A stretch of 64,000 bases of DNA from an uncultured delta proteobacterium (GTDB lineage: Bacteria > Myxococcota_A > Polyangia > Fen-1088). Position numbers and translations under genes: made by a program. Shown piece after piece: positions 19,861-52,336 of the stretch (its first letter is position 1; the number at the start of each line of letters is the position of its first letter). The notes under the pieces are model-generated. The model ran no database searches. It saw nothing but the letters and a program-made list of their open reading frames with translations, and had not been told where the DNA came from. The stretch is from assembly GCA_963737265.1 (NCBI GenBank), contig CAVTRY010000011.1:640001-704000 (forward strand). Direction: 5' to 3'.

Positions 19861-21254
19861 GTCCTGCTCCGGGCGACTTCCATGGCCTCGGCGATCATCT
19901 TGTCTTGCTCGGCGGGCTTGGCCCAGCGCGCTTGACCTTCCGCGGGCAGCAGATGGATGGGATCGAAGTAGCAGAAGTAATCGCCCGGATGGACCACGGG
20001 CGAGACAAACACGGTAATTCCCGTGACCCGGTCGTAGTGTTCGAACGAATGAACATTGCGCTTGCCGCCGCCCGGTGTGTCCACCACCACCATCGGCATA
20101 TTGAAGCCGGCGACCAACCCACGCAGCTGCTTCTCGATATGCGCGCCAGTCGAAACCGTCGTGCGCAAGTCTTCCACGCCCTTCACCATATCGTGCACGT
20201 AGACGTAATACGGATGGATGTTGATATAGGAAAGCCGCTTGATGAGCATTCCCATGGTGGCGACCGAGTCGTTCACGCCGCGCATGAGCACGGTCTGATT
20301 GCGCACGGTGATGCCGCGTTCGCACAGCTTGTTCGCCGCCGCCTGGGTGATGGCCGTGATCTCGCTCGGGTGGTTGAAGTGGGTGTGAATCATCACGTCC
20401 TTGTGGACCTTGCGCCCTTTTTCCACGATCGCGGTGACCGCATCGATCCACGCGTGGTCGGTCAAAATCTTCTGCGGCATGACCGCCGGGCCCTTGGTGG
20501 CGAAGCGAATGCGACGAACGTGCGGGACGGCCAGAAAAGACTCACCCAGAAAGGTAATCTGGTCCGCGCGCAGGTGCGAAGCGTCGCCGCCCGAAATCAG
20601 CACGTCCTCGACCTCGGGCCGGGATGTCACGTAAGCGATGGCCTGGTGCCAGCGTTCGATGTCGACGCCGAACTGAAGCTTGTGAACCTCCTCGGTGTCG
20701 AGGCCGACGGCATAGCTGCGCGTGCAGAAGCGGCAGTACACGGGACAGGTCGCGATGGGCAAGAACAGGACCTTGTCCGGGTAGCGGTGAGACAGGCCTG
20801 GAACGGGCATGTCCTGCCGCTCGTGCAACGGATCGAGGTCGACCTTGGGATGGTCAGGCAGCCGGCGCGAGAGCAGCGGGATGAACTGGATACGAATGGG
20901 ATCTTCGTAGGGGTTCGACCAGTCGACGAGCGAGAGCAGATAGGGCGACACACGCACCGGCATGGGCGCGTGATGGAAGCCCTCCTCGGCATCACGGACG
21001 AAGGCGGGCGAAACCAGCCCTTCCAGTGTCGCGAGAAGTTTGGGCATATTGGTGATGGAATTCTTGGCCTGCCAATGATGGTCGAGGAACTCGGCCTCGG
21101 ACACGTGGGCGTAGGCGTGGATGCGCTGCCAGAACGGCCCGTCGCGCAGGTCGCGATGGGCGAGGGCTTCCGGCGGTACGGGGCAGCGGTGCGCGGGTGG
21201 AAGGATTGGCGCGTGGGATTGGGTTGCCGCACCGTCGTTGAGGTCAGCTCTCAT
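19857..21254 (-). CDS. KamA-family radical SAM protein (lysine 2,3-aminomutase/EpmB-like)
   Basis: HRYPDKVL, CPVYCRFCTR, THFNHPSEI, NQTVLMRGVND, DTPGGGK. Confidence 0.9.
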   Translation of the reverse strand: MRADLNDGAATQSHAPILPPAHRCPVPPEALAHRDLRDGPFWQRIHAYAHVSEAEFLDHHWQAKNSITNMPKLLATLEGLVSPAFVRDAEEGFHHAPMPVRVSPYLLSLVDWSNPYEDPIRIQFIPLLSRRLPDHPKVDLDPLHERQDMPVPGLSHRYPDKVLFLPIATCPVYCRFCTRSYAVGLDTEEVHKLQFGVDIERWHQAIAYVTSRPEVEDVLISGGDASHLRADQITFLGESFLAVPHVRRIRFATKGPAVMPQKILTDHAWIDAVTAIVEKGRKVHKDVMIHTHFNHPSEITAITQAAANKLCERGITVRNQTVLMRGVNDSVATMGMLIKRLSYINIHPYYVYVHDMVKGVEDLRTTVSTGAHIEKQLRGLVAGFNMPMVVVDTPGGGKRNVHSFEHYDRVTGITVFVSPVVHPGDYFCYFDPIHLLPAEGQARWAKPAEQDKMIAEAMEVARSRT

Positions 21255-21410
21255 AGATTCCTCGTGGTTGGGTTGCCCAGTTCTGGCATAAGAACGAAAC
21301 AGAGTCGCCCATTTTCGCACCCCGTGGACCAACCCGGCCGGTATTCCCAATTGGCGGGCGAGTCGGGTTAGTGTCTTGGTGATTTCGTGTTTATTCGAGA
21401 GGATGTCATC

Positions 21411-23774
21411 ATGACCGATCAGCAGACGCTTTCACGGATCGGGACGGTCTATTTTCTCGCGACGATTCTTGTCGCCTGCGCGGGGGCCAAGGTGGGCAGC
21501 GGCGACCAAGGAGGTACGAGCCCGGGTGGAAATGGTGTTGTTGTTGGCGGCGGCGGCACCACTGGAATCTCCATCAACCTCGACGGCGGGCCCTCTATCG
21601 GGGGAGTCGGTACGGGCGGGACAGGCGGCTACCAGCACCCCGCCACCAAGAATTTTCCTGAAGAAGCTACCTGCCAGGGCGCCTCGGGTCAGTGGGGCGA
21701 AGCCCTGCAGAAGGCGCTGTGGTTTCTCAATGTGAACAAGTCCGGGCCGGGTGTGCTGTCGACCTACGTTCAGTGGCGAGGCGATGCGCACCTGATGGAC
21801 CAGCACATCAAGTTGAGTCCAACCGATCCGACTGGCGTGAATATGTCGCAGGCATTCATCGACCAGAATCGCGCCGTGCTCGATCCCAAGGGTACCGGCG
21901 AGGTCGACCTGTCGGGCGGATTCCACGACGCCGGCGACTACATCAAGTTCGGCCTGACGACGGGTTTCACCGCGTCCACCGTGGCGTGGAGCCTCTACGA
22001 ATTTCCCGATTCCTTCCGTATCACGGGACTCGAGGACGAAACGCTCAACCTTCTACGCTGGGCCGACGACTACTTCATGAAGTCGACCTTCCTGGACAAC
22101 AACGGCAATTTCGTGGCCTTTGCCCATCAGGTTGGCGACGCCTCGGATCACACCTGCGGTTGGATGCCGCCCGAGCTGCGACGCGTCGACTTCTGCCCAC
22201 GCAAGGGCTACTTCGCCACCGCCGAGACGCCCGCGGCCGACGTTACGGCGAGCGCGGCCGCGGCGCTGGCGCTGACGTCGCTCGTGATCAAAGCCAAGGA
22301 CGCGGACTACGCGCAAGCCTGTCTCAAGTACGCCACCGCTCTTTACAAATTCGCCGCCCAGCACCCAGACACCGTCGGGAACACAACCGGAGGACTCTAC
22401 ACGTCCGAGTACGCGGCCGACGATCTGGCCTGGGCCGCCATCTGGCTGTATGAGGCGACGGGGACGCAATCCTATCTCGACGACGTCCTCGGCGTTGGCG
22501 GCGCTGGCGGCGGCTGGCTCGACCACTTCCCTGGCTTCAAGACCACCTGTCTGCAAAGCGCGGGAGCCAGCTGTTGGACCGAGTCGCAGACGCACGACTG
22601 GAACTCGGTCAGATCCGGCGTGTTCCTGAAACTCGCGCAGATTTTGCGCGATACCAACAGCCCTCTGGCCAAGGGGATGGCCATCATCGCGCGCGACGAC
22701 TCCATGAAGTGGCCGCAGGGCACTGTGGCCATGACACCGGCAGGGTTCTCCGTGCTCTACGCCTACGGCTCGGCCCGCTATAACTCGGCGGCGCAGTTCG
22801 TCGCCTTGCTCTATGCCAAGCTCTTCGGCGCGAAAGATCCGGACGCCGTTAACGCCATCACCCCCTGGGCCAAGAAGCAGATGGCCTACATCTTGGGCAG
22901 CAACCCGCTTGGTAAGTCGTACATGATGGGGTTCACCGACAACTACTGCAACCAGCCCCACCACGCCGCCGGCCACGCCTCGATCTGGGGCGAGCCCAAC
23001 AACCCGGTGGCCAACCGCCACATCATCTGGGGCGCTCTCATCAACGGTCCCGACGCCGCCGACGGTCACATCGACAACCGCGCCGACTTCGGCAGCAACG
23101 AGGTCACCATCGACTATAACGCCTCGCTCATCGCCGCCCTCGCCGCCCAGTATTCGCTGCAAGGAAATGGGCAGTGTCCCTTGGCGCAGTTCCCGCCGGT
23201 CGAACCCGAGATCGACGAATACTACACGCTTTCCAACCTCAACTCCGGGGGCTCCTGCCGTTCCCAGGTCACGGTCACGCTCATCAACGAGACCATCCAT
23301 CCGCCGCGCTACAACGAGAACCTGAGCGTGAAGTACTTCTTCGACATCAGCGAACTGCAGGCCCAGGGCAAGTCCATCAGCGACGTCACGGCCAGCCTGA
23401 TTTACGACCGCGGCGCCACCGAATTCGGCCAGCCATCCAGCATCGCCTCTCCCAAGCTTTGTCCCAAGAGCTCTTCGACCTACTACGTGGAAATGGGCTT
23501 CGCGGGCTACGACTTCTGGGGCCGCATCGTCCAGCTCAAGGCCCCGCGCACCTTCATGCTCGATATCGGCACCGCGAACGGCGCCGACTGCGTCTGGGAT
23601 CCATCCAACGACTGGAGCTACGCTTCCCTGCAGCCGGCGCCAACCGACGGTAGCGACCCGCCCAAGACGCCCCACATCACGGTGTATAGCAACGGCATCC
23701 TCGCCTGGGGCGAAGAGCCGCCCTGCTTCGACGAAACGGTCACGCCTCAGCCGCCGCCGATCTGGATCCCGTAG
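21411..23774 (+). CDS. GH9 endoglucanase lipoprotein with a C-terminal CBM3-like domain
   Basis: DLSGGFHDAGDYIKF, QPHHAA, WGALINGP, NEVTIDYNA; CBM3-like tail LSVKYFFDISE...WDPSNDWSY. Confidence 0.9.
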   Translation: MTDQQTLSRIGTVYFLATILVACAGAKVGSGDQGGTSPGGNGVVVGGGGTTGISINLDGGPSIGGVGTGGTGGYQHPATKNFPEEATCQGASGQWGEALQKALWFLNVNKSGPGVLSTYVQWRGDAHLMDQHIKLSPTDPTGVNMSQAFIDQNRAVLDPKGTGEVDLSGGFHDAGDYIKFGLTTGFTASTVAWSLYEFPDSFRITGLEDETLNLLRWADDYFMKSTFLDNNGNFVAFAHQVGDASDHTCGWMPPELRRVDFCPRKGYFATAETPAADVTASAAAALALTSLVIKAKDADYAQACLKYATALYKFAAQHPDTVGNTTGGLYTSEYAADDLAWAAIWLYEATGTQSYLDDVLGVGGAGGGWLDHFPGFKTTCLQSAGASCWTESQTHDWNSVRSGVFLKLAQILRDTNSPLAKGMAIIARDDSMKWPQGTVAMTPAGFSVLYAYGSARYNSAAQFVALLYAKLFGAKDPDAVNAITPWAKKQMAYILGSNPLGKSYMMGFTDNYCNQPHHAAGHASIWGEPNNPVANRHIIWGALINGPDAADGHIDNRADFGSNEVTIDYNASLIAALAAQYSLQGNGQCPLAQFPPVEPEIDEYYTLSNLNSGGSCRSQVTVTLINETIHPPRYNENLSVKYFFDISELQAQGKSISDVTASLIYDRGATEFGQPSSIASPKLCPKSSSTYYVEMGFAGYDFWGRIVQLKAPRTFMLDIGTANGADCVWDPSNDWSYASLQPAPTDGSDPPKTPHITVYSNGILAWGEEPPCFDETVTPQPPPIWIP

Positions 23775-23856
23775 GACAAGCCCGGGCTTCGCCCGCAGTA
23801 GATCAGCGTCGCGGCCGCGGAGCGGGCGGCGTTGCTGTTGCGCCATCCTCGGGCCA
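23325..23856 (+). repeat. Host junction repeat, copy 1 (GH9 3' end plus hrpB 3' end, 532 bp)
   Basis: Near-identical to 32454..32985. Its 3' part, extended to 24110, recurs at 28251..28893. Confidence 0.95.
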
Positions 23857-24110
23857 CCGCGCTGCACGCCCAAGCCCTGGCCCGCACGGCCGCCTGCCTC
23901 GCAACCTGGTGGCGAGCGCGGAGACTGGCTGAACTGACGACACCTCGACCAGGGCGGGATGGAGTAGACTGCCCTGCGTGCTCAACAGAGACCCCGTCAG
24001 GCCCCAGAAACCCGGTCAAGCGCGCTGCGCCAACGTGATCGGGGCCGACCTGATGCGGTCCGGCATGGTTCTCCGACGCTCAAAAAACCCATTCGAAATG
24101 CCTATGGTCA
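23857..24110 (+). mobile_element. IS91/ISCR-like right end: transposase C-terminal stub plus oriIS-like terminus
   Basis: Reads PRCTPKPWPARPPASQPGGERGDWLN* and ends CCCATTCGAAATGCCTATG, which resembles the recalled ISCR oriIS (GCGTTTGAACTTCCTATAC). Confidence 0.65.
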
Positions 24111-24318
24111 TGAGGCGCAGAGGTGTTTTGCAGCGAGGGCAGACGGTGTCGGCGACCTTCGCGGGACGCCATGGGGTACACTGCGCCCCGTGTTCGCGAC
24201 ACACCCTCAAACCTCCCCCGCGACAATCCCGCGTTTTGGCACCGGCCCACTCGCAAGCAACTCGGCCCGGCCTCGAAGGGTTCTCGCTCGTCGCAAAAAC
24301 CCTTTCGAAAGGACTAGG
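24111..24318 (+). mobile_element. Second, diverged tandem IS91-like end
   Basis: ATGGGGTACACTGC...AAAACCCTTTCGAAAGGACTAGG. The motif spacing is 129 nt, the same as ATGGAGTAGACTGC...AAAACCCATTCGAAATGCCTATGG in the preceding unit. Confidence 0.55.
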
Positions 24319-24408
24319 ATCCTCAGGCACCGCCTAGGCACCTGCGACTGCTCAGAGTTTCCGAGCTTGTGTTACCATGGCTGAGCGCCCTGAAATCAGG
24401 AGGTTCGG

Positions 24409-25726
24409 ATGCCCGGTCCTGCTCGCACCATTCTAGATAATCTAGGCAAGCAAACCCTGAGACGGCTGTGCGAAGAGCGTGGATTGCAAACCGCCAGAGA
24501 GCTCGATGAAATGCGCGCCCGCCTCGCACATTCCTTCAGGGGTGACACGAAAGAACTCGTAGACCGTCTTTCCCGGAGAGAAATGCAGCAGATTCTCGAT
24601 GTCTGGGAATTTGAAGTTGACGGACACTATGGGGGCTTGGTGGGTGTGTCATATGCGTCGAAGGATGACCTCGCGAAGGCTGTGCTGGTTATCTACGAGG
24701 ATGGCTGGGGCCCAACAAGTCGAAGCCTGAGCCCGGTGGGGAGTGGATCTCGGTTGCGTGTTTCGATCGATGACGAGACAGATTTGGAGGATTGCGCGCA
24801 TAAGCCCGAAGCTGAGGGTGGCCCCCAGACCGAGGAAGAGGCCGCCCAGCCGTTCGACGACGAAGGAGAAAGAAGCTTTCTCGCCGATCTCTGATTCGAA
24901 ACTCGCCGAGCGAGGTCGCACCACCACGTACATTCGCAGGCTGGTGAACGACCTTGGCAGACACCACGCCGAACATCGCCTTCGGTTGAGCGCCGTTCGA
25001 CACGTTGGCCACGTGCTTGTGAGCGCTGGAATGTCTACAGACCCCGATCTGTCGACAATGACCGCAGCACCTGGAATCGACGCCCGCGTTGTCGTCATCC
25101 GGCGCATGGCCTCACCTAGGAGGAGGCACGATTCGGCAATTACGCGCGACGTTATCTCGCGCTCAGATCCACCACCCGGAACGATGAGGATTCGGCCACC
25201 GACAGCACCATCACCGGTACCTTCCGCACAACCTTCCGGATTCGAGATGGCGAACGAGCAACTGAAATTCCTGGTTACTGTCGCCACTTCGATCAGCATT
25301 CTGAACCAAGAAGGGCGAGCGCAGGCCGTCGAGATGGCTTCGGAGGGAATCGAACTTAGCGCGGCGGATCGAATCCGGTTGAAGGCATTCTCCCATCAAT
25401 ATGCCGGTGGCAACTTCGAATTAGGGCGCACTTTGGCCTATCTCCGCGCCGGACTTCCGGAACGCAGGCGGCAGCAGTTGCTCGATTGTCTCCTCGTACT
25501 CGCGCCGACCTGTCAAGCACTAGACGAAGCGCGGGAGGCTCATGCAGTTGAACTAGGGGTACAAGCGCGTATCGAGTCCCCGCCCTCGGCCCCACCTGCG
25601 AATAGCCAACAGACGGTCACTCCCGCCCAATCCACGAAATCCGAGCCAATCGGACAAGGCCAAATCGAGGCTGGCGGGGTACGACAGAACGAAGGACTCG
25701 ACTCAGTCTTTGGAAAGGGGACGTAG
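24409..25726 (+). CDS. Hypothetical protein upstream of the BrxL-like gene; two overlapping ORFs, probably one frameshifted gene
   Basis: ORF 24409..24894 (helical N-terminus then acidic stretch) overlaps 24743..25726 (possible TerB-like helical C-terminus). Stop is 2 nt before the BrxL-like ATG. Confidence 0.55.
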
Positions 25727-25728
25727 TC

Positions 25729-27789
25729 ATGGGCAACCAAGGAACGATTGACTCCGACGCCACCCTTGCCCGGGCTGTCTATGGGACGCGTGTTGTTGAC
25801 AAGAGCCTTTCAGGAGAAGAGGCATTTGCACGCCTTCCTCGCTTTGTTACCGAGTATCTCTTCGCAAAATATGTGCGCCCAGGGCGCGAACAGGAAGACT
25901 TGCAGTCCTTGAAGGAGAAGATTCGCGGTCGCATTCCGGAGGCTGACCAGAAAGAAATAATCAAGAACCGGCTCATGCGGGACGGTGAATATGTCGTAAT
26001 CGATCAACTAGAAGCCGAGGTTGATCTCGTCGAGAACTGTCACCGCGCGCGCTTGAACTGCCTGGATTCCGAATCGATTCAAATCGATGCCGATCTCGTA
26101 GATCGTTTTGAGGGCGTCCTGAGTGGCGGACTATGGGGAACCGTGACCCTCAGATACGATTCCTCAGCACCCCCAAAACTGAAGATTGCTGTCAAAGCCT
26201 TCGTTCCATTTCAGCTTGACCGTCCCGACGTCGATGGGTTCAAGAAAGGGCGGAGCCGCTTTGCTCTTGATGAATGGATCCGCCTGCTTCTTCGAAGCGC
26301 GGGGTACGAGCCTGACACAATCCCGAGCGAGCGCCAGAGATGGTTGCTTCTTGCCCGGATGATCCCACTGGTCGAACGAAATTTGAATCTGATCGAGCTT
26401 GGGCCGAGGGGTACGGGCAAGACCTTTCTACTCAGAAATCTCTCTCCGACGGTGTTCACCATCTCGGGAGGTCGACCTTCGCCGGCAACCCTTTTCATTC
26501 ACAAAGTCTCGCAGCGACTCGGCATCATAGGCACGCGCAAGGTGGTTGTATTTGATGAGATTGCCGCAACCACTTTTCCAGACCGGGAAACTGTTGCTAC
26601 TCTCAAGGATTACATGGAGAGCGGGCAGTTCAGTCGGGGCAGGAAGGTTGTCGCGTCCGACGCAAGTCTGGTCCTGACCGGGAATCTTGAGGTTTCCGGC
26701 GATCAGCCCAGCGAGCAATACACCCATTTGTTCCAGGAGCTGCCAGCGCCGTTAGTCGATGCCGCATTCTTGGATCGAATTCATGGGTACTTGCCAGGCT
26801 GGGAGATACCGAAAGTGAGTGAAGCGTCTCTAGCCCAAGGCGTTGGGTTTGTGACTGACTATTTTGGAGAGGTATTGAAATCGCTCCGAGACGATGATGT
26901 CGCGCGGGCACTTGATCCTGTTGATCCTGGCGCCAGCGCAACAATTCGTGACGCAAGGGGCGCGCGCCGAATCGCCTCCGGAATGTTGAAGCTGCTTTTC
27001 CCAGACGGAAGCCATTCAGAAGAAGACGTAAAGCGATGCATGCGGTTTGGGATCGAGCTGCGACAACGCGTCCACAACCAGCTGACCCAGATTGCCCCAG
27101 GAGAGTTCGCGCGAAAAGTCCTCGCATTTCCGGGCATGGAACCACATGAGGCACGCGACCTGGTGGAGTCGAGAAAAGTTCAAGAACGCGACGTGCGCGC
27201 CAATCGTGAGCCGGTAGTTGGACAAGTGACAGGCTTGGTCGTGTTGCAGACGGGTGGTGTGATTACTGGTGGCGATGTCTTCTTCACGGAGGTTTCATTG
27301 TTGCGCGGACGGGGTGGCGCGGGCTTTAGCATCACCGGCTTGAGAGGACCGGTCCTAAATGATTCAGTTAAGACAGCTTTCCAAGTGCTCCAGCAACTAG
27401 GGGGTCAGTGGAAAGGCGTTCCCCCACGCCTCGCAGATTCGACGGTGGCGGTTCACCTGGTGAACATCGCAGATCCTAAGGAGGGACCTTCCGCCGGTGT
27501 CGCGTTCGTTACAGCGATGGTCTCGGCGGCGTTAGGAATCCCTGTGCGGCCAGCCTTGGCCATGACGGGGGAAGTAACTCTTCACGGTTTCATCGGTCAG
27601 GTTGGCGGCATCGTCCACAAACTCAAAGCAGCCGTCCAGCACCAGCGCAAGCTCGTGATTATTCCTGCGCAGAACGCCGGTGATCTTCGCGACGTCCCCG
27701 ACGACATACTAACTGCCGTCGAGATTCGCACGGTAAGTCGGATCGAGGAAGTCCTGGAACTGGCTCTGGAACGTCTGCCCAATGACTAG
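25729..27789 (+). CDS. brxL: BrxL-like AAA+/Lon-related protease
   Basis: LPRFVTEYL, GGLWG, LRSAGYEP, Walker A ELGPRGTGKT, VVVFDEI, LKDYMESG, AFLDRIHGYLPGWEIPK; Lon C-domain PKEGPSAG, AMTGEVTLHG, GGIVHK. Confidence 0.85.
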   Translation: MGNQGTIDSDATLARAVYGTRVVDKSLSGEEAFARLPRFVTEYLFAKYVRPGREQEDLQSLKEKIRGRIPEADQKEIIKNRLMRDGEYVVIDQLEAEVDLVENCHRARLNCLDSESIQIDADLVDRFEGVLSGGLWGTVTLRYDSSAPPKLKIAVKAFVPFQLDRPDVDGFKKGRSRFALDEWIRLLLRSAGYEPDTIPSERQRWLLLARMIPLVERNLNLIELGPRGTGKTFLLRNLSPTVFTISGGRPSPATLFIHKVSQRLGIIGTRKVVVFDEIAATTFPDRETVATLKDYMESGQFSRGRKVVASDASLVLTGNLEVSGDQPSEQYTHLFQELPAPLVDAAFLDRIHGYLPGWEIPKVSEASLAQGVGFVTDYFGEVLKSLRDDDVARALDPVDPGASATIRDARGARRIASGMLKLLFPDGSHSEEDVKRCMRFGIELRQRVHNQLTQIAPGEFARKVLAFPGMEPHEARDLVESRKVQERDVRANREPVVGQVTGLVVLQTGGVITGGDVFFTEVSLLRGRGGAGFSITGLRGPVLNDSVKTAFQVLQQLGGQWKGVPPRLADSTVAVHLVNIADPKEGPSAGVAFVTAMVSAALGIPVRPALAMTGEVTLHGFIGQVGGIVHKLKAAVQHQRKLVIIPAQNAGDLRDVPDDILTAVEIRTVSRIEEVLELALERLPND

Positions 27790-27812
27790 CTAGCGAGGCG
27801 CGATGCGATGCG

Positions 27813-28250
27813 CATAGGCGAATCGAATGGGGTACTCGGACCACCACACCCTCGCGCGCACCTGGACAGCATGGCGGAGCGGGTTTGGCCGGCGGGATTC
27901 GCGTGGCGAAAGGTCTGTCTTGACCACGAGCGCAGTCTACCCCATGGCGAGCCCGCCTAGGTCGCCTTGATCAGTTCAGCCAGGCGTCGCCGCTACCAGT
28001 CTTGCGGGGCGGCGGACGCGCGGGGCGTAGCTGAGCGACGGGCGCGGCGAAGCCGCGTGGGGGCCTTGCGCTTGTTTGCTGGGCCGGCTGGCGCTGCCCC
28101 AGTGGTAGCAGCCGCGAGCAACCTGGCCAGGAGCGGATCCTTCTCCGCCATGGTCTCGTCGCTGACGACGGTGACCTCGCTGTCGCCCGGCGCGGCGACT
28201 AGGGTGATGACGCTGCGGCGCTGGAGGAAGCGGAGAATGCGCTTGCTGGC
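27813..28250 (-). mobile_element. Inverted, internally deleted IS91-like remnant with oriIS-like end
   Basis: Minus strand reads ASKRILRFLQRRSVITLVAAPGDSEVTVVSDETMAEKDPLLARLLAAA, then ...RPARPPPRKTGSGDAWLN* in another frame, ATGGGGTAGACTGC and terminal CCCATTCGATTCGCCTATG. Confidence 0.65.
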
Positions 28251-28893
28251 GCTCTTCGACCTACTACGTGGAAATGGGCTTCGCGGGCTACGACTTCTGG
28301 GGCCGCATCGTCCAGCTCAAGGCCCCGCGCACCTTCATGCTCGATATCGGCACCGCGAACGGCGCCGACTGCGTCTGGGATCCATCCAACGACTGGAGCT
28401 ACGCTTCCCTGCAGCCGGCGCCAACCGACGGTAGCGACCCGCCCAAGACGCCCCACATCACGGTGTATAGCAACGGCATCCTCGCCTGGGGCGAAGAGCC
28501 GCCCTGCTTCGACGAAACGGTCACGCCTCAGCCGCCGCCGATCTGGATCCCGTAGGACAAGCCCGGGCTTCGCCCGCAGTAGATCAGCGTCGCGGCCGCG
28601 GAGCGGGCGGCGTTGCTGTTGCGCCATCCTCGGGCCACCGCGCTGCACGCCCAAGCCCTGGCCCGCACGGCCGCCTGCCTCGCAACCTGGTGGCGAGCGC
28701 GCGGAGACTGGCTGAACTGACGACACCTCGACCAGGGCGGGATGGAGTAGACTGCCCTGCGTGCTCGACAGAGACCCCGTCAGGCCCCAGAAACCCGGTC
28801 AAGCGCGCTGCGCCAACGTGATCGGGGCCGACCTGATGCGGTCCGGCATGGTTCTCCGACGCTCAAAAAACCCATTCGAAATGCCTATGGTCA
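28251..28893 (+). repeat. Junction repeat copy 2 (GH9 tail, hrpB tail and IS91-like end)
   Basis: Matches 23470..24110 apart from a 2-bp insertion and at least one substitution. Confidence 0.95.
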
Positions 28894-28894
28894 G

Positions 28895-29356
28895 ATGCGC
28901 TCTCCAGGCAAGAACCTAATCGCGAGGCTTCTGGCGACCAGTTCGCCGTCCGCCGTGGTGCTCATGCGACTGACCGTGGGGGCCGTATTCCTTTCCGAAG
29001 GCATTCAGAAATTCCTATTCCCGGCCGCGCTCGGGGCCGGTCGGTTTGCCAAGATAGGTATCCCTTGGCCGGAGTTCAGCGCGCCCTTCGACGGGGGTTT
29101 TGAGGTCGGTTGCGGTCTTCTGGTCCTTGTCGGCCTTGGAACTCGGCTCGCCACGCTCCCGCTCATCGTCGACATGTTGGTTGCCATCGCGACGACGAAG
29201 ATCCCGATGCTTTTCAAGAGCGGGTTCTGGAGCACGCTGCACGAGGCACGGACCGACTGGTCGATGCTCCTTGGCGCGCTTTTTCTCCTGATCGTTGGGG
29301 GCGGCGCCTGGTCGCTCGATGCGTGGCTCGCTCGACGAGACACCGCGCGTGACTGA
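28895..29356 (+). CDS. DoxX-family membrane protein
   Basis: MRLTVGAVFLSEGIQKF...FEVGCGLLVLVGLGTR...GGGAWSLD. Confidence 0.85.
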   Translation: MRSPGKNLIARLLATSSPSAVVLMRLTVGAVFLSEGIQKFLFPAALGAGRFAKIGIPWPEFSAPFDGGFEVGCGLLVLVGLGTRLATLPLIVDMLVAIATTKIPMLFKSGFWSTLHEARTDWSMLLGALFLLIVGGGAWSLDAWLARRDTARD

Positions 29357-29876
29357 CGGGGCTGCGAGCGAGCCCGACCGGCTGGCGCCAAACCGGCTAC
29401 GGAATATGGCATGGTTCTTTCTGCGCCTGGGATTCACGGCGTTCGGTGGGCCGGCGGCTCATGTTGCGATGATGGAAGAAGAGGTCGTCCGGCGGCGCGG
29501 CTGGCTCAAGCGAGATGAGTTCCTCGATCTCCTCGGCGCGACCAACCTCATCCCCGGCCCGAACTCAACGGAGATGGCGATCTTCATCGGGCACAAGCGA
29601 GCTGGTTGGCCCCGTCTGGTGCTTGGCGGTGCGTGCTTCGTCCTGCCCGCCGCGCTGATAACCCTTGCGTTTGCTTGGGCATACGTCCGATTTGGCTCCA
29701 TCCCACAGGTGGCGGCGCTGCTCTACGGAGTCAACCCGATCATCATCGCGATTGTGGTGCAGGCGCTTTGGGGGTTGGGGCGAACCGCGGTGAAGTCGCG
29801 GATGCTGGCGGCTCTTGCCGTGCTCGCGGCGGTCGCGAGCTTCGCAGGGCTCAACGCGCCCCTGGTTCTGCAATGA
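29349..29876 (+). pseudogene. chrA: Chromate transporter ChrA, N-terminal half only
   Basis: FLRLGFTAFGGPAAH, TNLIPGPNSTEMA; ends after one CHR domain with no partner half. Confidence 0.75.
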
Positions 29877-30227
29877 CTTCGCACCGATCGATTGCGGCGC
29901 TTGCCATCGGCATCCTGCTCTCGCCCGCGACCGGGTACGCGGGTCCGCCCTACGTGACGGATGACCCCCCAGCCCGTGGAATTCCGCCACTGGGAGTTCT
30001 ATCTGGCAACCCAGCATTCCGTTACCCATGAGGCCGCATCCGGAACCGCTCCGCACATCGAGGTGAACTACGGTGCCTTGCCTGGACTCCAGCTTCACGT
30101 AATCGCCCCGCTGGCGTACGCGCATTCGAGCGATGGTCTCACGTTCTACGGCCTGGGCAACATGTGTGCAGGTTTGCACCAAGTTCTACGCAAGAGGAAT
30201 CGTCTCGGCCTTGACGGCATCCAATAG
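29873..30227 (+). pseudogene. Truncated, frameshifted exported beta-barrel-like protein
   Basis: Signal peptide plus AGPPYVTDDP, continuing in another frame as PVEFRHWEFY...EVNYGALPGLQLH, then breaking off. Confidence 0.55.
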
Positions 30228-30257
30228 CGCGTCGATGCCGACCAAGGAAAAGCCGCG

Positions 30258-30875
30258 ATGTCGAAACTGACGGTCACGTCCTTTGTGAGCCTGGATGGCG
30301 TCATGCAAGCGCCCGGCGCGCCCAAGGAAGACCCGAGCGGTGGTTTCGCGCACGGCGGTTGGTTGGTGCCCTTCGCCGACGCCGACATGGGCGCCTTCAT
30401 GGTCGGAGTATTCGCGCGCGCCGATGCATTCCTGCTCGGCCGCGGAACGTACCAGATCTTCGCGTCGCACTGGCCACGGGTCTCCGACACGAACGATCCT
30501 ATCGCCCTGGCCTTGAACGGATTGCCCAAATACGTGGCCTCGAAGACCCTGGCCAAGGTCGACTGGAACAACGCCTCGCCGGTGCGGAACATCGTTGAGG
30601 ATCTCGGCGCCATCAAGAGCCGCCACGCCCGCGAGCTGCAAGTGCATGGCAGCCCTGGCCTCATTCAAACCTTGATCCGTCACGAGCTGGTCGACGAATT
30701 CAACCTGCTCACTTTTCCCGTCGTGCTGGGCACGGGAAAGCGCTTGTTTGGCCCAGGCTCCATTCCCGCCGCGCTCAAGCTCGCGAGTTCCCGCACGAGC
30801 AGTACAGGCGTCGTCATTTCCACCTACGCCCGCGCGGGGCGCCCCAGCTACGGCTCGTTCGCGCTCGACGCTTGA
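30258..30875 (+). CDS. Dihydrofolate reductase family protein (RibD C-terminal-like)
   Basis: FVSLDGVMQAPG, LLGRGTYQIF, PKYVASKTL, LVDEFNLLTFPVVLGTGKRLF. Confidence 0.9.
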   Translation: MSKLTVTSFVSLDGVMQAPGAPKEDPSGGFAHGGWLVPFADADMGAFMVGVFARADAFLLGRGTYQIFASHWPRVSDTNDPIALALNGLPKYVASKTLAKVDWNNASPVRNIVEDLGAIKSRHARELQVHGSPGLIQTLIRHELVDEFNLLTFPVVLGTGKRLFGPGSIPAALKLASSRTSSTGVVISTYARAGRPSYGSFALDA

Positions 30876-31115
30876 GGTGACCAAAGTCGTGCGAAGGAAT
30901 CGACAATCAGTTGTGAGATGAGGGCACCAGTAAACCCGTTTAGTTGGTAGGTTTCTCGGATACCTTCGCCGGTGCCGGGCAGCGGAAGTCGTTTTTGCGG
31001 TATACGTCTTTTCGGTCCCCGAGGGACCTGGCGAGGCTCGAAGGCGAGAAGTAAGGAGTCCCCGTCACGAGCTGGTCGATGCTCGCCGGCTGAGACATGG
31101 TCGTAATACTGGCCA

Positions 31116-31754
31116 TTAGTCCGCTTCGATGCCAACGCGCAATCCGAGGGTAAGAATCGCTTGCCGAAGAGTATCGTCGGCCGAAAGACGACCACTCCGC
31201 CGGGTGCCGCGAAGCGCTGAACCAGCGCGGTCACCGAACAGGACAAGCGCCTTATCCTGGTCGCGCTTGCAGGATATCCAGAGCAGACCGTCCACCTTAT
31301 GATACTGCCGATGCAGAGCTTGTGCCCACAGTGCGGTGTTTAAGTAGTCGGTGGGCGGACTCTCGATCAGCTCGTCCTTCGGGATCTTGAGAAGATGAAG
31401 ACGATCGGTCGTCAAGTCGATGAGCTTCAGGTCACGGTCTGGTATTACCACTCCATGGGACCGATCGCCGAATTCGTCCAAATCTACGAACTTGTCTGGC
31501 GCATCGATTGGTACGTTGTGGAAGATGGTCTCGAAGATAGCTCCCTCAAGCGACGAGCCACCGTAGAGATAGGGCACTGGCTTGCCGGAAGAGTCATGAA
31601 TCGGAGCGAAGCGGGTCGGCTTAGTCGGTGCAGCGGCGAGGTTGAAGCTTTGTGGCTCGAAGTCGGTATGGTGAATCGTGTGGATCTCGGTGCCGGCTGG
31701 CCAGCCATAGACATTGGCAACGAGCGACTTTCCCGGCGGGAGACGGCAGGTCAA
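31116..31754 (-). CDS. RES-domain toxin
   Basis: TRFAP, LYGGSSLEGAIFETIFH, DGLLWIS, ALVLFGDR; TTG start overlaps the upstream stop. Confidence 0.8.
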   Translation of the reverse strand: MTCRLPPGKSLVANVYGWPAGTEIHTIHHTDFEPQSFNLAAAPTKPTRFAPIHDSSGKPVPYLYGGSSLEGAIFETIFHNVPIDAPDKFVDLDEFGDRSHGVVIPDRDLKLIDLTTDRLHLLKIPKDELIESPPTDYLNTALWAQALHRQYHKVDGLLWISCKRDQDKALVLFGDRAGSALRGTRRSGRLSADDTLRQAILTLGLRVGIEAD

Positions 31755-32362
31755 GCCGCGCTCCCTCCGGCATCTCGGCGGGCCGCCTCGATCACGTCTT
31801 TGGGCGACGAGGTCAACAAATCCACGGGGCGTGCCTGGTTCGGAAGCCAACCGTTGTTCGACGTGAACCATAGCGCCAACTTCCACGGAGACTTCCGTTC
31901 GCCGAACGCTTCGATGATCTCCCGCACAGCCTTGATCGGGCGGTGGTCCTCGAACTGAAACAGGGGAAAGACCTCGTGTTGTCCCTTCTTGGCATCGCGA
32001 TGAGGAACCGAGAACACCAGACGTCGTTTTTTCCAGTTGTCGGCCAGTGCGTGGCGATTTGCTGCCTGCGATCCGTTAGCCGCTGCCAATTCTTCTGCCG
32101 TCGTCCAGCCGAATTCCTTGAGCAGACGTGCCCGGCGGGCTGCCAGTCGGTGCGCCATACTCACGTCGACATTGCTCGGCGCTACAAGATTGCCTGTGAT
32201 GATCTCGATCAACTCTTCGGTCTTCCGCGAGCGTACCTTCACGGTGTGTTCTTGGACCAAGCTAGCAAGCACGCTAGCAAGCACCATCTCCGCGGCCTGG
32301 TCGTGGATCTCAAACGAGGTCGTGCGATCAGGCGTCTGGTCAAAAGTCGTGTTGCCGGCCAT
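31751..32362 (-). CDS. Xre/MbcA/ParS-like antitoxin partner of the RES toxin
   Basis: C-terminal LALWFTSNNGWLPNQARPVDLL; translationally coupled to the RES gene. Confidence 0.75.
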   Translation of the reverse strand: MAGNTTFDQTPDRTTSFEIHDQAAEMVLASVLASLVQEHTVKVRSRKTEELIEIITGNLVAPSNVDVSMAHRLAARRARLLKEFGWTTAEELAAANGSQAANRHALADNWKKRRLVFSVPHRDAKKGQHEVFPLFQFEDHRPIKAVREIIEAFGERKSPWKLALWFTSNNGWLPNQARPVDLLTSSPKDVIEAARRDAGGSAA

Positions 32363-32453
32363 GGGAGCTACTCCTGATGAATATGACCATATTATTCACC
32401 AATCATCATTCCTGTCAACCAAAGGCCGCATTGCCGACACGGGCCTCTGAACC

Positions 32454-32985
32454 AGCGTGAAGTACTTCTTCGACATCAGCGAGCTGCAGGCCCAGGGCAA
32501 GTCCATCAGCGACGTCACGGCCAGCCTGATTTACGACCGCGGCGCCACCGAATTCGGCCAGCCATCCAGCATCGCCTCTCCCAAGCTTTGTCCCAAGAGC
32601 TCTTCGACCTACTACGTGGAAATGGGCTTCGCGGGCTACGACTTCTGGGGCCGCATCGTCCAGCTCAAGGCCCCGCGCACCTTCATGCTCGATATCGGCA
32701 CCGCGAACGGCGCCGACTGCGTCTGGGATCCATCCAACGACTGGAGCTACGCTTCCCTGCAGCCGGCGCCAACCGACGGTAGCGACCCGCCCAAGACGCC
32801 CCACATCACGGTGTATAGCAACGGCATCCTCGCCTGGGGCGAAGAGCCGCCCTGCTTCGACGAAACGGTCACGCCTCAGCCGCCGCCGATCTGGATCCCG
32901 TAGGACAAGCCCGGGCTTCGCCCGCAGTAGATCAGCGTCGCGGCCGCGGAGCGGGCGGCGTTGCTGTTGCGCCATCCTCGGGCCA
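32454..32985 (+). repeat. Junction repeat copy 3 (orphan GH9/CBM3 tail plus the functional hrpB 3' end)
   Basis: 532-bp match to 23325..23856 with one synonymous GAA/GAG difference seen. Confidence 0.95.
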
Positions 32986-35541
32986 GGCATGCCGGGGATA
33001 GCGCCGACAGAGCTCACGTCGGATTCCGGGATAGTGTTTTTGCCAGAATCCCGCAAGGTCGCTCGTCACCTGCACGGCGCGCTGGTTGGGCGCTAGCAGG
33101 TGCAGGGTCAGCGGCACACGTCCCCGGCAGAGCGTCGGGCCAGAGGCCATGCCAAAGAAGTCCTGCAACCGGGATTCGATCCACGGCCTCTGGCCGCGCT
33201 GGTAATGCACGAGCGCCTGGCGTCCGCCCGGCAACCGGACGTGGTCGGGGGTGTCGTTTCGCAGCAGCGCCGAGACGGTTGGCGAAAGCACTCCGCGGAT
33301 ACGTTCCTCCATCGGCACCGAACGCAATTCGGCCATGCTGGTCAAGCCGCCACAGGCAGCGACGACGATGGCGGAAACCTCCGCGTCCTCCAAGATCGGT
33401 ATTTCCTGCTCGGAGAACGCCTGCCGCAAAATCTCAAGTTTTACTTGAAGAACAGCGGTCGAACTTCCGTCCGGGTCGGGGCTGCCGGTCCCCGCCGCCA
33501 AGGCTGCTTCAGCCAGCATTCGGCTCGCTTCGGCGGACGACGGCGCGGCCCGCCGGGTCTCGTCGAGCACCACGGCCCCATAGCAAAGCCGGGCCACGAT
33601 CTCGACCCGCTCGGTGCTCGGGTTCCACACGGTTTCGTCCGTCTCGGACATTCCTTCCGGCACCAAATCGAGCAGCCACTCGGCTCGTACACCAACGGCC
33701 AGGCGGACTACGACCGACCGACCCGCGCGTTTCCCCGCCGCGGTCGCGCGCTCCTCCGCATCCACGGCAACCATGACGTCGTCAGGGGGCAAGGGACCAA
33801 CCTCCGCCACGCCCCCCGTGGCCAGCACGGCTTGGCTCGCTCCTGGCGAACGGCGACGCATGACCCGATCGGGGAAAGCCGTCAGGGTAGCCATGGAAAG
33901 CGCCTCGTCCACGGCCTCGGCGTTGGCCGGCCGCGGTAAGACGCTCTTGGCGGCGACCCCAGCCAGCACGCCAGCGAGCTGCCGCCGGGCTTTCTCGACC
34001 GATTCGGCGGCACGCGCGTCCACGCCCAGGGCGCGCAAGCGACCGCGGTCGAACCGCACCGCCCTGGCTTGGTTGAAGCGGTCGAGGCGTTCGAGCAGAT
34101 CCGAGCCTTCCGCCGCCGCACCCCGATTGGCAGCGTCCCCGAAGCGGGTTCGTGCGGCATCGCTGATATCGCCTTCCGCGAGCAGCCCCGCCACCGCAGC
34201 CGCCTCCTCGCCCACGCCACGGCGTTCTCCTTCCACCAGCAGGCGCGCCAGCCGGGGATGAGCGGGAAAACGCAGCATGCGCCGCCCGATTTCCGTCAAG
34301 GCGCCCTGCCCGCCTATCGCCCCAAGCTTGCGCAGAAGCGCGGTCCCTGATTCGATCGACGAAGCCCCTGGCATCTCGAACCACGCGAATCGGTTGGCGT
34401 CGCGCACGCCCAGCGCCGCGAGCAGGAGCAGGGCTTCGCAAAGGTCGAGCCGGCCTATTTCCGGAATCTCGAACGGCCGGCGCGATTCGAAATCGTGCCG
34501 GGGATAGAGGCGGATGGCCAGGCCGGGCCCGGTTCGTCCGGCCCGCCCTGCGCGCTGAATGGCCGAGGCTTGGCTGATCTTGGCAACCGCCAGTTTGGAC
34601 AGCCCGCTCCACGCGGAATGGGATGCGATGCGGGCCAGCCCCGAATCGATCACCGTGGAAACGCCTTCGATGGTCACGGACGTCTCGGCGACGTTGGTCG
34701 ACAAGATGATCTTAGGTCGAGCCGCGGGCGTCACCGCCCGACGTTGCTCCGCTGGCGATAAGTCGCCATGAAGGGGCAGCACCAGCAGATCTTTCGCCTT
34801 GGCAAAGGCTTCAAGCGCCGAGGCCGCTCGTCGGATCTCGCCCGCGCCGGGGACGAAAACGAGAATATCCCCGGCCATCCCCTCTTGATGAACGCGCCGA
34901 ACCGCCGATGTGATTCGGTCGGCCAAGGGACGCTCGTCGGCGTTGTCCGGATAGTCGATGGAAACGGGAAAGGCCCGGCCCAGGCTGCGCACGCCGGGAC
35001 AATCGCCGAGAAACGCACGCACCGGCTCACTTTCCAGCGTGGCGGACATGACGACCAGGCGCAGATCCGGTCGCGCGTTCAGTTGCAAGCGCCGAAGCAA
35101 TGCCAGGGCGAGATCCGCGGCGAGGTGCCGTTCGTGAAATTCGTCGAGAATGACCGCGGACACGCCCGGCAGCGTCGGCTCCGCCAGCAGACGCCGCAGC
35201 AGAATTCCCTCCGTCATGAAGCGGATGCGCGTACGCGGGCTCGATACGTCCTCGAAGCGAACCGTGTAGCCAACGGTTTGACCGACCTCCTCCCCCATTT
35301 CCTCCGCCACGCGCGAGGCCGCCAGGCGCGCTGGCAAGCGCCGCGGTTGCAACACGACGATCTCGCCGCCCGAACCATGCCCGAGCAGGGCCGGCGGCAC
35401 CCGCGTGGTCTTGCCCGCCCCTGGCGGCGCTTCGATGACCAGGCTTGCCTCGTGCAACAGGGTCGACCCTATCTCCGCCAGCAGCGCATCGATGGGTAGT
35501 TGGGTTCGTGCCAAGGATGACTGCGTCCGATGCGACGGCAT
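32932..35541 (-). CDS. hrpB: ATP-dependent helicase HrpB
   Basis: APPGAGKTT, DEFHER, MSAT, STNVAETS, QRAGRAGR, C-terminal LLAPNQRAVQVTSDL...RYPRHAWPED. Confidence 0.95.
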   Translation of the reverse strand: MPSHRTQSSLARTQLPIDALLAEIGSTLLHEASLVIEAPPGAGKTTRVPPALLGHGSGGEIVVLQPRRLPARLAASRVAEEMGEEVGQTVGYTVRFEDVSSPRTRIRFMTEGILLRRLLAEPTLPGVSAVILDEFHERHLAADLALALLRRLQLNARPDLRLVVMSATLESEPVRAFLGDCPGVRSLGRAFPVSIDYPDNADERPLADRITSAVRRVHQEGMAGDILVFVPGAGEIRRAASALEAFAKAKDLLVLPLHGDLSPAEQRRAVTPAARPKIILSTNVAETSVTIEGVSTVIDSGLARIASHSAWSGLSKLAVAKISQASAIQRAGRAGRTGPGLAIRLYPRHDFESRRPFEIPEIGRLDLCEALLLLAALGVRDANRFAWFEMPGASSIESGTALLRKLGAIGGQGALTEIGRRMLRFPAHPRLARLLVEGERRGVGEEAAAVAGLLAEGDISDAARTRFGDAANRGAAAEGSDLLERLDRFNQARAVRFDRGRLRALGVDARAAESVEKARRQLAGVLAGVAAKSVLPRPANAEAVDEALSMATLTAFPDRVMRRRSPGASQAVLATGGVAEVGPLPPDDVMVAVDAEERATAAGKRAGRSVVVRLAVGVRAEWLLDLVPEGMSETDETVWNPSTERVEIVARLCYGAVVLDETRRAAPSSAEASRMLAEAALAAGTGSPDPDGSSTAVLQVKLEILRQAFSEQEIPILEDAEVSAIVVAACGGLTSMAELRSVPMEERIRGVLSPTVSALLRNDTPDHVRLPGGRQALVHYQRGQRPWIESRLQDFFGMASGPTLCRGRVPLTLHLLAPNQRAVQVTSDLAGFWQKHYPGIRRELCRRYPRHAWPEDGATATPPAPRPRR

Positions 35542-35545
35542 CGGC

Positions 35546-44800: not shown

Positions 44801-44839
44801 TCCTCGCAACTTTCTGCTGCCGTTTCCGAGAACCCATGC

Positions 44840-45793: not shown

Positions 45794-45885
45794 CTGGTGC
45801 CTTCCCATCAAATGAAAATCGCGGTCCCCGCCCGCGCGCTTGCAACATCGCAAGGCCCCTCCCTCTCTCTTCAGATCCTGCCGTG

Positions 45886-52290: not shown

Positions 52291-52336
52291 GGAGCTCTCA
52301 CCTTTCGGTGCCTCTCCAATATCCCCAATATCCTGT

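Follow-up and report, generated by a model that had tools for sequence, protein, structure and literature searches.

The convergent ends of a GH9 cellulase gene and hrpB, in the chromosome of an uncultured soil myxobacterium, are repeated around two different blocks of cargo together with the right end of an IS91/ISCR-family element. In the window (the whole stretch of 64,000 nucleotides that we analysed), the order is H–E–cargo 1–H'–E–cargo 2–H, in which H is the host repeat and E is the element end; the [H–E] module thus occurs twice and is closed by a third H. We infer, at slightly better than an even bet, that this two-unit array was built around its transposase-less right end by rolling-circle copying and homologous re-entry.

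Host gene ends in three copies

Self-comparison of the window placed the tail-to-tail gene ends of GH9 and hrpB in three copies in direct orientation. Their 387-bp core (23470–23856, 28251–28637 and 32599–32985) showed 0 differences in both pairwise comparisons, and exact repeats of this length make a chance origin impossible. In copy A (H; 23318–23856), 457 bp from the 3' end of GH9, stop codon included, are separated by a 28-bp spacer from the terminal 54 bp of hrpB, and the copy runs on unbroken into GH9 at its left. Copy C (32449–32985) runs on unbroken into the rest of hrpB at its right, and copy B (H'; 28251–28637) is truncated at the left relative to both. Pairwise sequence comparison gave A and C an extra 152 bp in common at the left, with one mismatch and one 2-nt indel at the extreme edge; because the indel lies at the very edge of the similarity, the starts at 23325 and 32454 given in a preliminary description are equally defensible. 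A and B have an extra 254/256 bp in common at the right (23857–24110 and 28638–28893; one 2-nt indel and one mismatch), and beyond 24110/28893 they are wholly unlike and lead into different cargo.

Both host genes are intact. GH9, with a CBM3 (21387–23774, plus strand; Pfam Glyco_hydro_9 7e-107, CBM_3 1.2e-6), and the DEAH helicase gene hrpB (32932–35658, minus strand; HrpB_C 6.7e-39, 908 aa) are full-length open reading frames (ORFs) that align without a break over the repeat edges to the locus of a relative (L012; GH9 residues 383–795, hrpB residues 77–899). Pfam searches of the ORFs tested between 23.9 and 32.5 kb detected neither an integrase nor a recombinase. The preliminary description therefore holds on the three direct copies, the intact host genes, the same ~250 bp leading to different cargo after the first two copies, the order of the parts and, for these ORFs, the absence of an integrase.

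Two different inserts in a triple direct repeat are what tandem accretion at one attachment site classically leaves, and the array, with its host genes whole, has that look. Two integrase-less integrative elements (CIME-like), each bringing host gene ends with it, could have accreted by means of a recombinase encoded elsewhere and an attachment site within H. We regard this as highly improbable: besides the lack of a recombinase domain in the ORFs tested, the H that such elements would have carried matches the host copy at all 387 bp, which is unexpected for elements from other hosts; the left edges of the repeat copies are unequal and their common right edge is a host|IS fusion; and the shared 'element end' is a truncated IS91-family end rather than the arm of an integrative element.

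Upstream of GH9 lies a conserved 602-aa gene (19563–21371, plus strand) that is not assigned to a family and had no match in Pfam or NCBIfam. Of the 10 hrpB loci of genus mates (L012–L021), all but L012 and L017, and thus 8, have its homologue tail-to-tail with hrpB, and the same neighbourhood recurs in four of the five closest loci in a wider contig set (L028, L040, L045 and L047). By this gene order, the 602-aa gene is the ancestral tail-to-tail neighbour of hrpB. GH9 was found between the two only in this genome and in one species-level relative, G011; in L012 its end is ~20 bp from that of hrpB. A search of relatives for an empty site had been proposed, and G011 provides one, a GH9/hrpB junction without the array.

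The repeated IS91/ISCR right end

The segment of ~250 bp that follows copies A and B is the oriIS-proximal (right) end of a multicopy IS91/ISCR-family element. After copy A (23857–24110, plus strand), it consists of a junction filler (23857–23866), the right-end remnant E(A) (23867–24106; IS reference positions 1532–1774) and the target tetranucleotide GTCA (24107–24110). After copy B (28638–28893, plus strand), sequence comparison gave the same filler followed by E(B) (28648–28889) and GTCA (28890–28893). E begins at position 1532 of an IS reference of about 1775, and E(A) holds the last 23 tnpA codons, a stop codon (23935–23937) and then a 169-bp oriIS tail ending in CCTATG. The H|E junction, including the 10-nt filler, is identical in A and B. 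E is 84–95% identical to the last ~245 bp of 21 other long copies in the genome, in which the upstream DNA codes for the transposase C terminus; similarity to IS91-family ends elsewhere was a decisive point on which the earlier reading could have failed, and it passed.

The genome also holds three intact 501-aa transposase genes. Their protein matched Pfam Y2_Tnp (1.4e-22) and Zn_Tnp_IS91 (5.7e-15), both above the Pfam cut-offs, and matched NCBIfam ISCR_clade_Ia (8.3e-87; 292 bits, below the cut-off of 925) and transpos_IS91 (1.7e-24; 86.5 bits, below the cut-off of 125), so that it is a member of the IS91/ISCR family that matches no curated subgroup. The transposase of the full-length copies is of the Y2/HUH type with an N-terminal zinc-binding domain, and shares only 36.9% identity with the closest relative borne on a plasmid. 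No transposase gene lies inside the array: each E has only the last 23 codons, and what else of tnpA lies in the window is fragmentary (residues 444–459, 228–292 and 481–501). The end subtype of E (terminal ...TTCGAAATGCCTATG) occurs in this genome only on defective copies. The three intact genes have two other end subtypes, about 84–91% identical to E over its 245 bp, and the assembly contains no intact transposase of E's exact subtype; the suggested search for an intact IS91 transposase with these ends thus succeeded for the family and not for the subtype.

Copies elsewhere in the genome record how the family moves. Leftwards from a constant oriIS end, four of them are 99.7–99.9% alike over the IS and a flank of 199, 991 or at least 1496 bp; the right flanks, assembled in three of the four, all differ. 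A constant right end with nested left flanks is the signature that one-ended rolling-circle transposition of the family has left in this genome. GTCC or GTCA follows 17 of 22 IS-like right ends, with different downstream flanks each time, and it is GTCA in both copies of the array. These tetranucleotides agree with the 5'-GTCC target of IS1294b (PMC13181058); according to the same paper, 82 bp of the IS91 right end plus the tetranucleotide are enough once transposase is supplied in trans. None of the 25 listed inverted pairs (31 found) links the left end (L023 ~5305–5340) to the right end (~6990–7025) as a terminal inverted repeat would, and the copies shown have no duplicated bases common to their left and right flanks, as a target-site duplication would leave. 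An imperfect GGTT...AACC palindrome ~20–40 nt from the end is conserved in the aligned copies; the fold of the last 126 nt (oriIS) was no better than that of shuffles (z = 0.00).

Cargo, joints and proposed assembly path

The core of cargo 1 (24341–27789, plus strand) is a two-gene module, defined by Pfam/NCBIfam matches and by the matching loci L051 and L052. Gene 1 (24409–25726, plus strand), whose product has no known family, is an intact 437-aa ORF in L051 and is split in the window by a 1-nt frameshift near 24891. Gene 2 (25729–27789, plus strand) encodes a BrxL-type Lon-like ATPase/protease (BrxL 1.2e-144; TIGR02688 above its cut-off). Cargo 1 is independently mobile: its core has 92% nucleotide identity to L051/L052, whose flanks differ, and in another organism's contig it again lies beside an IS91-like oriIS remnant.

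Debris of two other IS91-like elements in cargo 1 had been missed by the earlier reading. The left edge is formed by an inverted IS91-family tnpA fragment (24111–24150, minus strand; residues 444–459, tblastn 24150->24103) and by E2 (24151–24322, plus strand), which an alignment of termini supports as the right-end remnant of a second, diverged IS91-like element; E2 is 77% identical to C15:169282–169452 and 83% to L051, and its oriIS end points at the cargo-1 genes. At the right, IS' (27793–28250, minus strand) is an inverted, internally deleted IS91-like copy (28247->28050, residues 228–292 at 80%; 28033->27974, residues 481–501) that is truncated at tnpA residue 228, with its oriIS end pointing at the BrxL stop codon.

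Cargo 2 (28894–32448) encodes, by Pfam/NCBIfam domain matches, DoxX (28895–29356, plus strand), a half-size ChrA chromate transporter (29295–29876, plus), a RibD_C reductase (30258–30875, plus), a RES toxin (31116–31886, minus) and an Xre/MbcA-like antitoxin (31751–32362, minus). No second copy of cargo 2 was found in the genome; both cargo cores are single-copy in the assembly, which has H at the three array places and nowhere else.

An assembler could have chained two strain alleles, each with one cargo between two host copies, in series. The contamination score of the genome (7.6%) is compatible with such an artefact, as is the base at 24891, which is missing in three sequencing runs relative to the window and suggests an error-prone read type; furthermore, public runs hold at most 0.20 of the words of the stretch, with no junction-bridging contig among those listed. 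We nevertheless think it very improbable. The contig is 1.4 Mb long, and copy B with its IS end spans only 643 bp with unique cargo on each side, so that one read would bridge it. Depths in run X1 were 5.3 and 2.3 for pieces identical to cargo 1, 3.3 and 2.1 for pieces identical to cargo 2 and 2.2–3.1 for the flanking genes, and thus not halved over the cargo, with 5.8 for the H piece, although depths this low carry little weight. Even as an artefact, each allele would keep the host duplication and the IS end.

On the path of copying and re-entry that we favour, a transposase acting in trans would nick oriIS, and a strand would be peeled leftwards through E into the DNA at its left, giving units or circles of [cargo–H'–E], or of [H'–E] alone. 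Copy B would be a one-ended copy of A that kept the right end, co-copied 387 bp of left flank and acquired a new right flank after GTCA. A single homologous crossover of the Campbell type would then return H-bearing circles to the native GH9/hrpB junction, which would duplicate H and keep GH9 and hrpB whole. The same reasoning has been put forward for ISCR1 and for the repeated 3'-CS in complex class 1 integrons. The H–E fusion and at least one cargo|H joint would go back to illegitimate (microhomology) joining, the origin also assumed for the ISCR1/3'-CS fusion. The path assumes cross-subtype action in trans, as the intact transposases belong to other end subtypes, and requires donor sites with [H'–E] beside cargo and a recipient with unbroken hrpB, neither of which is in the assembly.

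The joints bear on this path in both directions. Cargo begins directly after GTCA in both units, and the likeness of A and B ends within 1 nt of the IS-plus-tetranucleotide boundary, as it should be with oriIS as the active edge. An inverted tnpA would not carry GTCA at the place where it follows E(A), so the E(A)|cargo 1 joint is no plain canonical insertion. Microhomology at the host|IS joint (GGGCC), at the cargo 1|H' joint (GC..TTCGAC, common with the inverted tnpA) and at the IS|cargo 1 joint (ATGG..ATGAGG) points to illegitimate joining; the cargo 2|H(C) joint has only GAACC in common. None of these four joints has a recognisable termination motif. The left edges are unequal, H' starting at the equivalent of 23470 and H(C) at that of 23318, and no tetranucleotide is common to the left edges of the one-ended copies, H' and H(C).

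The microhomologies and the left edges without a consistent cleavage motif would also be expected had the IS end been a passive passenger while two template-switching or other microhomology-mediated illegitimate events joined foreign DNA. The fork would have moved to a foreign template and come back behind its point of departure, by 539 bp in event 1 and by 641 bp in event 2, each event duplicating the host stretch around the insert with no rolling-circle transfer or circle; a transposase nick at oriIS may have triggered event 2. The position of both cargo-1 ends within the debris of other IS91-like copies also favours this account, as do the scattered internal truncations of many IS copies in the genome, which show that illegitimate joining around the family is frequent. 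We give it serious weight but consider it unlikely, as a random breakpoint would fall this close to the functional boundary at ~3 of roughly 640 positions, copy B is built exactly like the four copies outside the array for which one-ended transposition is demonstrable, and two rare events of the same type at one site need a local cause.

Rolling-circle copying with homologous re-entry admits a bolder version, which we put forward tentatively and rather doubt: the host homology arm plus oriIS may be a working, self-propagating landing device through which any DNA captured by one-ended rolling-circle copying from the orphan oriIS is returned by homologous recombination to a harmless site on the chromosome, flanked by two intact genes. 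The locus would then turn over defence, toxin–antitoxin and metal-resistance cargo in the population, in the manner of an integron but with no integrase or transposase of its own.

Comparison with known capture systems

To our knowledge, nearly all known cases of ISCR-type capture come from the resistance plasmids and integrons of clinical Proteobacteria, and even there the mechanism has been deduced from sequence; a model of circles and homologous recombination for ISCR1 arrays was reportedly proposed by Toleman et al. in 2006. Here, an ISCR-like architecture lies in the chromosome of a soil myxobacterium, with ordinary host genes as its anchor and cargo other than antibiotic resistance, and the one-ended transposition of the family can be read directly from nested copies in the same genome. 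If active, the locus would offer a gene-sparing route to the build-up of accessory genes and a clean natural substrate for the circle-plus-recombination model. For annotators, orphan oriIS ends of 200–250 bp are marks of captured DNA. The preliminary description had drawn an analogy with ISCR1, which holds for the IS91/ISCR identity and the architecture and gains from one-ended transposition in the genome and the empty site in a relative; the assembly path, by contrast, is a reconstruction, and three of the joints carry microhomology in place of canonical cleavage motifs. Its 'platform' has only two units to rest on. In ISCR1 arrays the left edges of 3'-CS2 vary, as do those of H' and H(C).

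ISCR1-linked class 1 integrons, in the portions of PMC3575428 and PMC13393415 that describe them, have an IS91-like element without its terIS side, fused at a fixed junction to an anchor, with cargo right after oriIS and then a partial second anchor copy; two-unit arrays exist. The array shares the fixed anchor/IS junction, the lost terIS side, cargo after oriIS and a further anchor copy whose left edge varies. It differs in that its anchor is a pair of chromosomal gene ends (GH9/hrpB) and not the 3'-CS, there is no class 1 integron (none of the ORFs tested has an integrase domain), only 240 bp of the IS are left and they include no intact rcr/transposase gene, the host is an uncultured myxobacterium, and in place of antibiotic resistance genes the cargo has a defence-related gene of the BrxL type, a RES/Xre toxin–antitoxin pair and a gene for a chromate transporter.

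With IS91, IS1294 and IS1294b, as far as the cited sections of PMC13181058 describe them, the family has in common a Y2/HUH transposase, dissimilar ends without inverted repeats, a tetranucleotide beside oriIS (GTCC/GTCA here, GTCC for IS1294b) and the habit of carrying along DNA of variable length from beyond the left end. Classical one-ended products hold the whole IS, whereas the array has the right end only, so that any activity must come in trans, and its left edges lack a ter-like tetranucleotide. The ISCR28 'sandwich', in the part of PMC12772301 that cites Yuan et al. 2024, places the captured gene between an upstream remnant that has its own oriIS and a second, downstream oriIS, and is said to permit capture of what lies between them. 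E(A)–cargo 1–H'–E(B) has the same form, but both of its oriIS copies are remnants and host DNA lies within the repeated unit.

An environmental parallel is Sphingobium herbicidovorans MH, for which the relevant sections of PMC5737581 describe one-ended capture of catabolic genes, tandem duplications seeded on conserved IS91 ends and a circle, cIS91sdpA, detected by mobilome sequencing. That system resides on a megaplasmid with intact IS91 copies, and its repeats are IS sequence, not host gene ends; its IS91-like oriIS lies about 167 bp after the gene, close to the 169 bp that we find here.

Host DNA repeated at the GH9/hrpB junction

Repeat search, self-BLAST and base-by-base comparison each revealed one host stretch (H) in three direct copies, as the preliminary description had claimed: copy A at 23318-23856, copy B (H') at 28251-28637 and copy C (H(C)) at 32449-32985. 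Base by base, a core of 387 bp shows no differences among the three. Leftwards, A and C have 152 more bases in common, with one mismatch and a 2-nt indel at the extreme edge. Rightwards, A and B have another 254 (A) or 256 (B) bases in common (23857-24110 and 28638-28893; one mismatch and one 2-nt indel) and are wholly unlike beyond 24110 and 28893, which bears out the earlier reading that the first two copies are followed by the same segment of ~250 bp and then by different cargo. No further copy of H was found in the genome assembly. In the repeat, 457 bp from the 3' end of a GH9/CBM3 cellulase gene (21387-23774) are separated by a 28-bp spacer from the final 54 bp of hrpB (32932-35658, minus strand). 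Because A continues leftwards into the cellulase gene and C rightwards into hrpB, both genes are whole, as had been proposed, and their proteins align to those of a relative without a break over the repeat edges.

Public relatives have a DNA identity of only about 70%, and the MAGs that encode the closest HrpB proteins, at up to 75% identity, are labelled Myxococcales or delta proteobacterium. The tail-to-tail neighbour of hrpB is a homologue of a 602-aa gene (19563-21371 in the window) in 8 of 10 genus-mate loci, and the same pairing is present in 4 of the 5 closest genome_contigs loci. Among the loci compared, GH9 lies beside hrpB only in the window's genome and in one relative, G011 (locus L012). 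There the two gene ends are ~20 bp apart with nothing in between, and this arrangement is the empty site that the preliminary description had suggested looking for. In these two genomes the GH9/CBM3 gene has itself been inserted between hrpB and the conserved 602-aa gene; in other relatives the 602-aa gene homologue adjoins hrpB. Two loci, L028 and L047, have a gap of ~1.15 kb between that homologue and hrpB, and the 3' side of hrpB therefore looks like a recurrent insertion site.

Further along the window, an IS21-family pair occupies 42164-44508 (IstA-like, with rve and Mu-transposase C-terminal domains, and IstB, 4.2e-56). An ORF cluster without Pfam families follows at 44774-55343 and includes paralogous segments of ~0.3-1 kb at 84-99% identity (for example, 44783-45810 versus 53709-54733, 93%). 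Short tandem repeats lie near 41.9, 44.6 and 46.0-46.3 kb.

An IS91/ISCR-family end and its relatives in the genome

The segment that follows copies A and B, termed E, was searched for in the genome that the window comes from (25 contigs, 6.55 Mb), where the stretch 23867-24110 matches 21 further places, each over at least 218 bp and at 84-95% identity, and at most of these the upstream DNA runs into a reading frame. Three copies keep an intact ORF of 501 aa (contigs C8:26176-27696, C23:543331-544851 and C23:168-1688). The 501-aa protein carries the Pfam domains Y2_Tnp and Zn_Tnp_IS91; its best NCBIfam match is 'ISCR element clade Ia transposase' (8.3e-87) and its second 'IS91 family transposase', both below the curated cut-off. 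Its nearest plasmid-borne relative (36.9% identity over 94% of the length) carries the annotation 'IS91 family transposase' and adjoins sul2 on an IncC plasmid. The expected similarity to IS91-family ends is thus present, and the suggested search for an intact transposase gene with these ends yielded related genes at three places, the end subtype of E itself occurring in this genome on defective copies only.

The full element is ~1.72 kb, its right end terminates in CCTATG, and a search of it for terminal inverted repeats found none. GTCC or GTCA, then unrelated DNA, follows 17 of 22 IS-like right ends in the genome; a target tetranucleotide beside oriIS is a hallmark of the family, GTCC in IS1294b (PMC13181058, in the text available). 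E starts 23 codons ahead of the transposase stop codon and extends 169 bp beyond it to CCTATG, and GTCA stands directly after it in both array copies. By this anatomy, E is the oriIS end of an IS91/ISCR-family element and lacks both the transposase gene and the terIS end. Rfam returned only two sub-threshold matches at chance level, a promoter scan of E gave 0 sites, and folding of the oriIS end gave z = 0.00. At the DNA level, 5 of 41 genomes from the taxonomic family carry the IS family. The window's genome is one of them, and in it copy number and identity are far higher than in the other carriers.

Four IS copies (G000, the window's genome, C14:444505-451105, C23:541800-545024 and C23:1-3200) are 99.7-99.9% alike and have a constant right end. 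Their identity ends at oriIS; the DNA past it is unlike among three of them and the fourth is cut by a contig end. To the left of the IS the copies form a nested series, their identity reaching 199, 991 or at least 1496 bp into the flank. Rolling-circle copying from oriIS that overruns terIS gives such a signature (PMC13181058 and PMC5737581, in the parts accessible), and the series is a clean natural record of one-ended transposition, by which the family is, or recently was, active. Numerous further copies retain the right end but are broken at various internal positions. No common tetranucleotide was found at natural left ends, one-ended left edges, H' and H(C); three one-ended left edges begin ATGC, TGGT/TGGC and TGGC, and the left ends of the IS subfamilies have 9 further bases in common. 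The initial idea of a termination motif, with H' opening on the GCTC of the IS itself, did not stand up.

At IS reference position ~1334, the copy closest to E (C20:55061-55453, 95%) joins what looks, by eye alone, like a fragment of a tyrosine-recombinase gene. At C14:364200-368000, an IS variant has an insertion of ~560 bp inside the transposase gene (IS reference positions ~1191 to 1323) with a small ORF starting MEQRGTEKQRQDDF..., and occurs twice in tandem at a spacing of 2.8 kb, the second copy breaking off at position 1295. Considered as a second duplicated locus of flank plus IS end, this region proved to be two internally inserted variant copies, with no host DNA.

Two unlike cargos

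Unit 1 (24111-28250) is a patchwork of an inverted 40-bp tnpA piece, E2 (24151-24322, a right end from another, diverged IS91-like element), a two-gene core (24341-27789) and an IS91-like copy in inverted orientation that has an internal deletion and is cut at residue 228. The core consists of a gene for a 437-aa protein of no known family (24409-25726) and, downstream, one for a BrxL-type Lon-like protein. The 437-aa gene is split in the window by a 1-nt frameshift near 24891; one base is missing at 24891 from the contigs of three public runs, and the metagenome contig L051 (3930-5243) has the homologous gene as an intact ORF of 437 aa. Either the assembly carries an indel here or the gene has recently become a pseudogene. 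Two metagenome contigs (L051 3862-7312; L052) also carry the core, at 92% nucleotide identity and in another chromosomal setting, where an E2-like oriIS remnant again abuts the BrxL stop codon and the insertion point is ~25 nt off that of the window. The two-gene module moves between genomes with a leader of only ~70 bp and without other BREX genes. For the 437-aa partner of BrxL, Pfam, PADLOC and NCBIfam offer no family and Atlas gave no match; of 80 loci of BrxL relatives, L051 and L052 alone have it, apart from one weak match to the N-terminus. Together the two genes could be a stand-alone defence pair.

Unit 2 (28894-32448) encodes DoxX, one half-size ChrA, a RibD_C reductase and a RES/Xre pair; it holds no IS debris and has no other copy in the genome. 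Its native context was not found in 400 other genomes of the phylum, which gave only single-gene matches of ~65-79%. The single recognizable half-size ChrA gene is at 29295-29876; two ORFs tested in the ~380 bp after it (29877-30257), where the partner half would be expected, had no Pfam match. G+C is 0.57 in the cargo-1 core and 0.61 in cargo 2, versus 0.63 in the window. The cargo cores have no other copies in the genome assembly. No integrase or recombinase domain was detected in any ORF tested in either unit, in agreement with the original view of an integrase-free locus; tandem accretion by an unseen recombinase is highly improbable.

Origin of the array

The host/E junction is identical in A and B, at a GGGCC common to hrpB and the transposase gene, and identity between A and B stops at most 1 nt from the boundary of IS plus tetranucleotide. 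The joint of E-GTCA with cargo is not alike between units: in unit 2 the DoxX start codon lies one base past GTCA, and in unit 1 the inverted tnpA piece comes next after GTCA, although other copies imply that this piece had no GTCA of its own there. Cargo 1 meets H' where inverted tnpA and host have GC..TTCGAC in common, and cargo 2 meets H(C) at GAACC. Transposase cleavage explains these microhomologies no better than illegitimate joining or template switching does, and the main rival explanation, a purely recombinational origin with E as a passenger, is rather unlikely. Also counting against a transposition path are the restriction of E's subtype to defective copies and the lack of any further copy of H or of the cargo cores in the assembly. 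On the other side, copy B has exactly the anatomy of the four one-ended copies, with an unchanged right end, 387 bp of left flank copied along with it, and different DNA to the right past GTCA.

Copy C lacks E and restores hrpB, so transposition alone does not suffice and homologous recombination is needed. Two inserts flanked by direct host copies, with whole host genes, are most likely the product expected of a single homologous crossover between an H-bearing circle and the native site. One-ended copying by the IS family would supply a route to H-bearing molecules: a strand displaced from an orphan oriIS would run leftwards through E into H and beyond, and an H-bearing circle would enter the native GH9/hrpB site by a single crossover. 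This scheme posits a transposase acting in trans on E's end subtype, circles, donor sites and an order of events. A local hop of H'-E 4.1 kb downstream into contiguous cargo predicts that the tnpA cut at residue 228 continues after the second E; tblastn found no such continuation, and this model was therefore not adopted.

An assembly chimera of two alleles is improbable. The best public run contains only 0.20 of the window's words, no contig among those listed bridges a junction, and stretches that the runs leave uncovered are uninformative; both cargos and their flanks, however, have similar low depths in that run, which is a weak argument against a chimera. An exact search of metagenome contigs for the host/IS junction gave 0 matches.

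The proposal of an ISCR-like, integrase-free, non-autonomous array thus has support in identity (E as an oriIS end) and in its layout of host repeat, E and cargo, while IS91/ISCR-type capture is an unproven account of its assembly. The limited collection of literature searched, in the portions available, holds no report of such an array in Myxococcota. The model paper for the ISCR1 scheme with duplicated 3'-CS is reportedly that of Toleman et al. 2006. The scheme of crossover with a circle matches that proposed for ISCR1 and its duplicated 3'-CS (PMC3575428 and PMC13393415, in the passages available). For ISCR28, two successive oriIS around a captured gene have been described (PMC12772301, in the available text, citing the original), and here too two successive oriIS, the E of copy A and that of copy B, lie around captured cargo.
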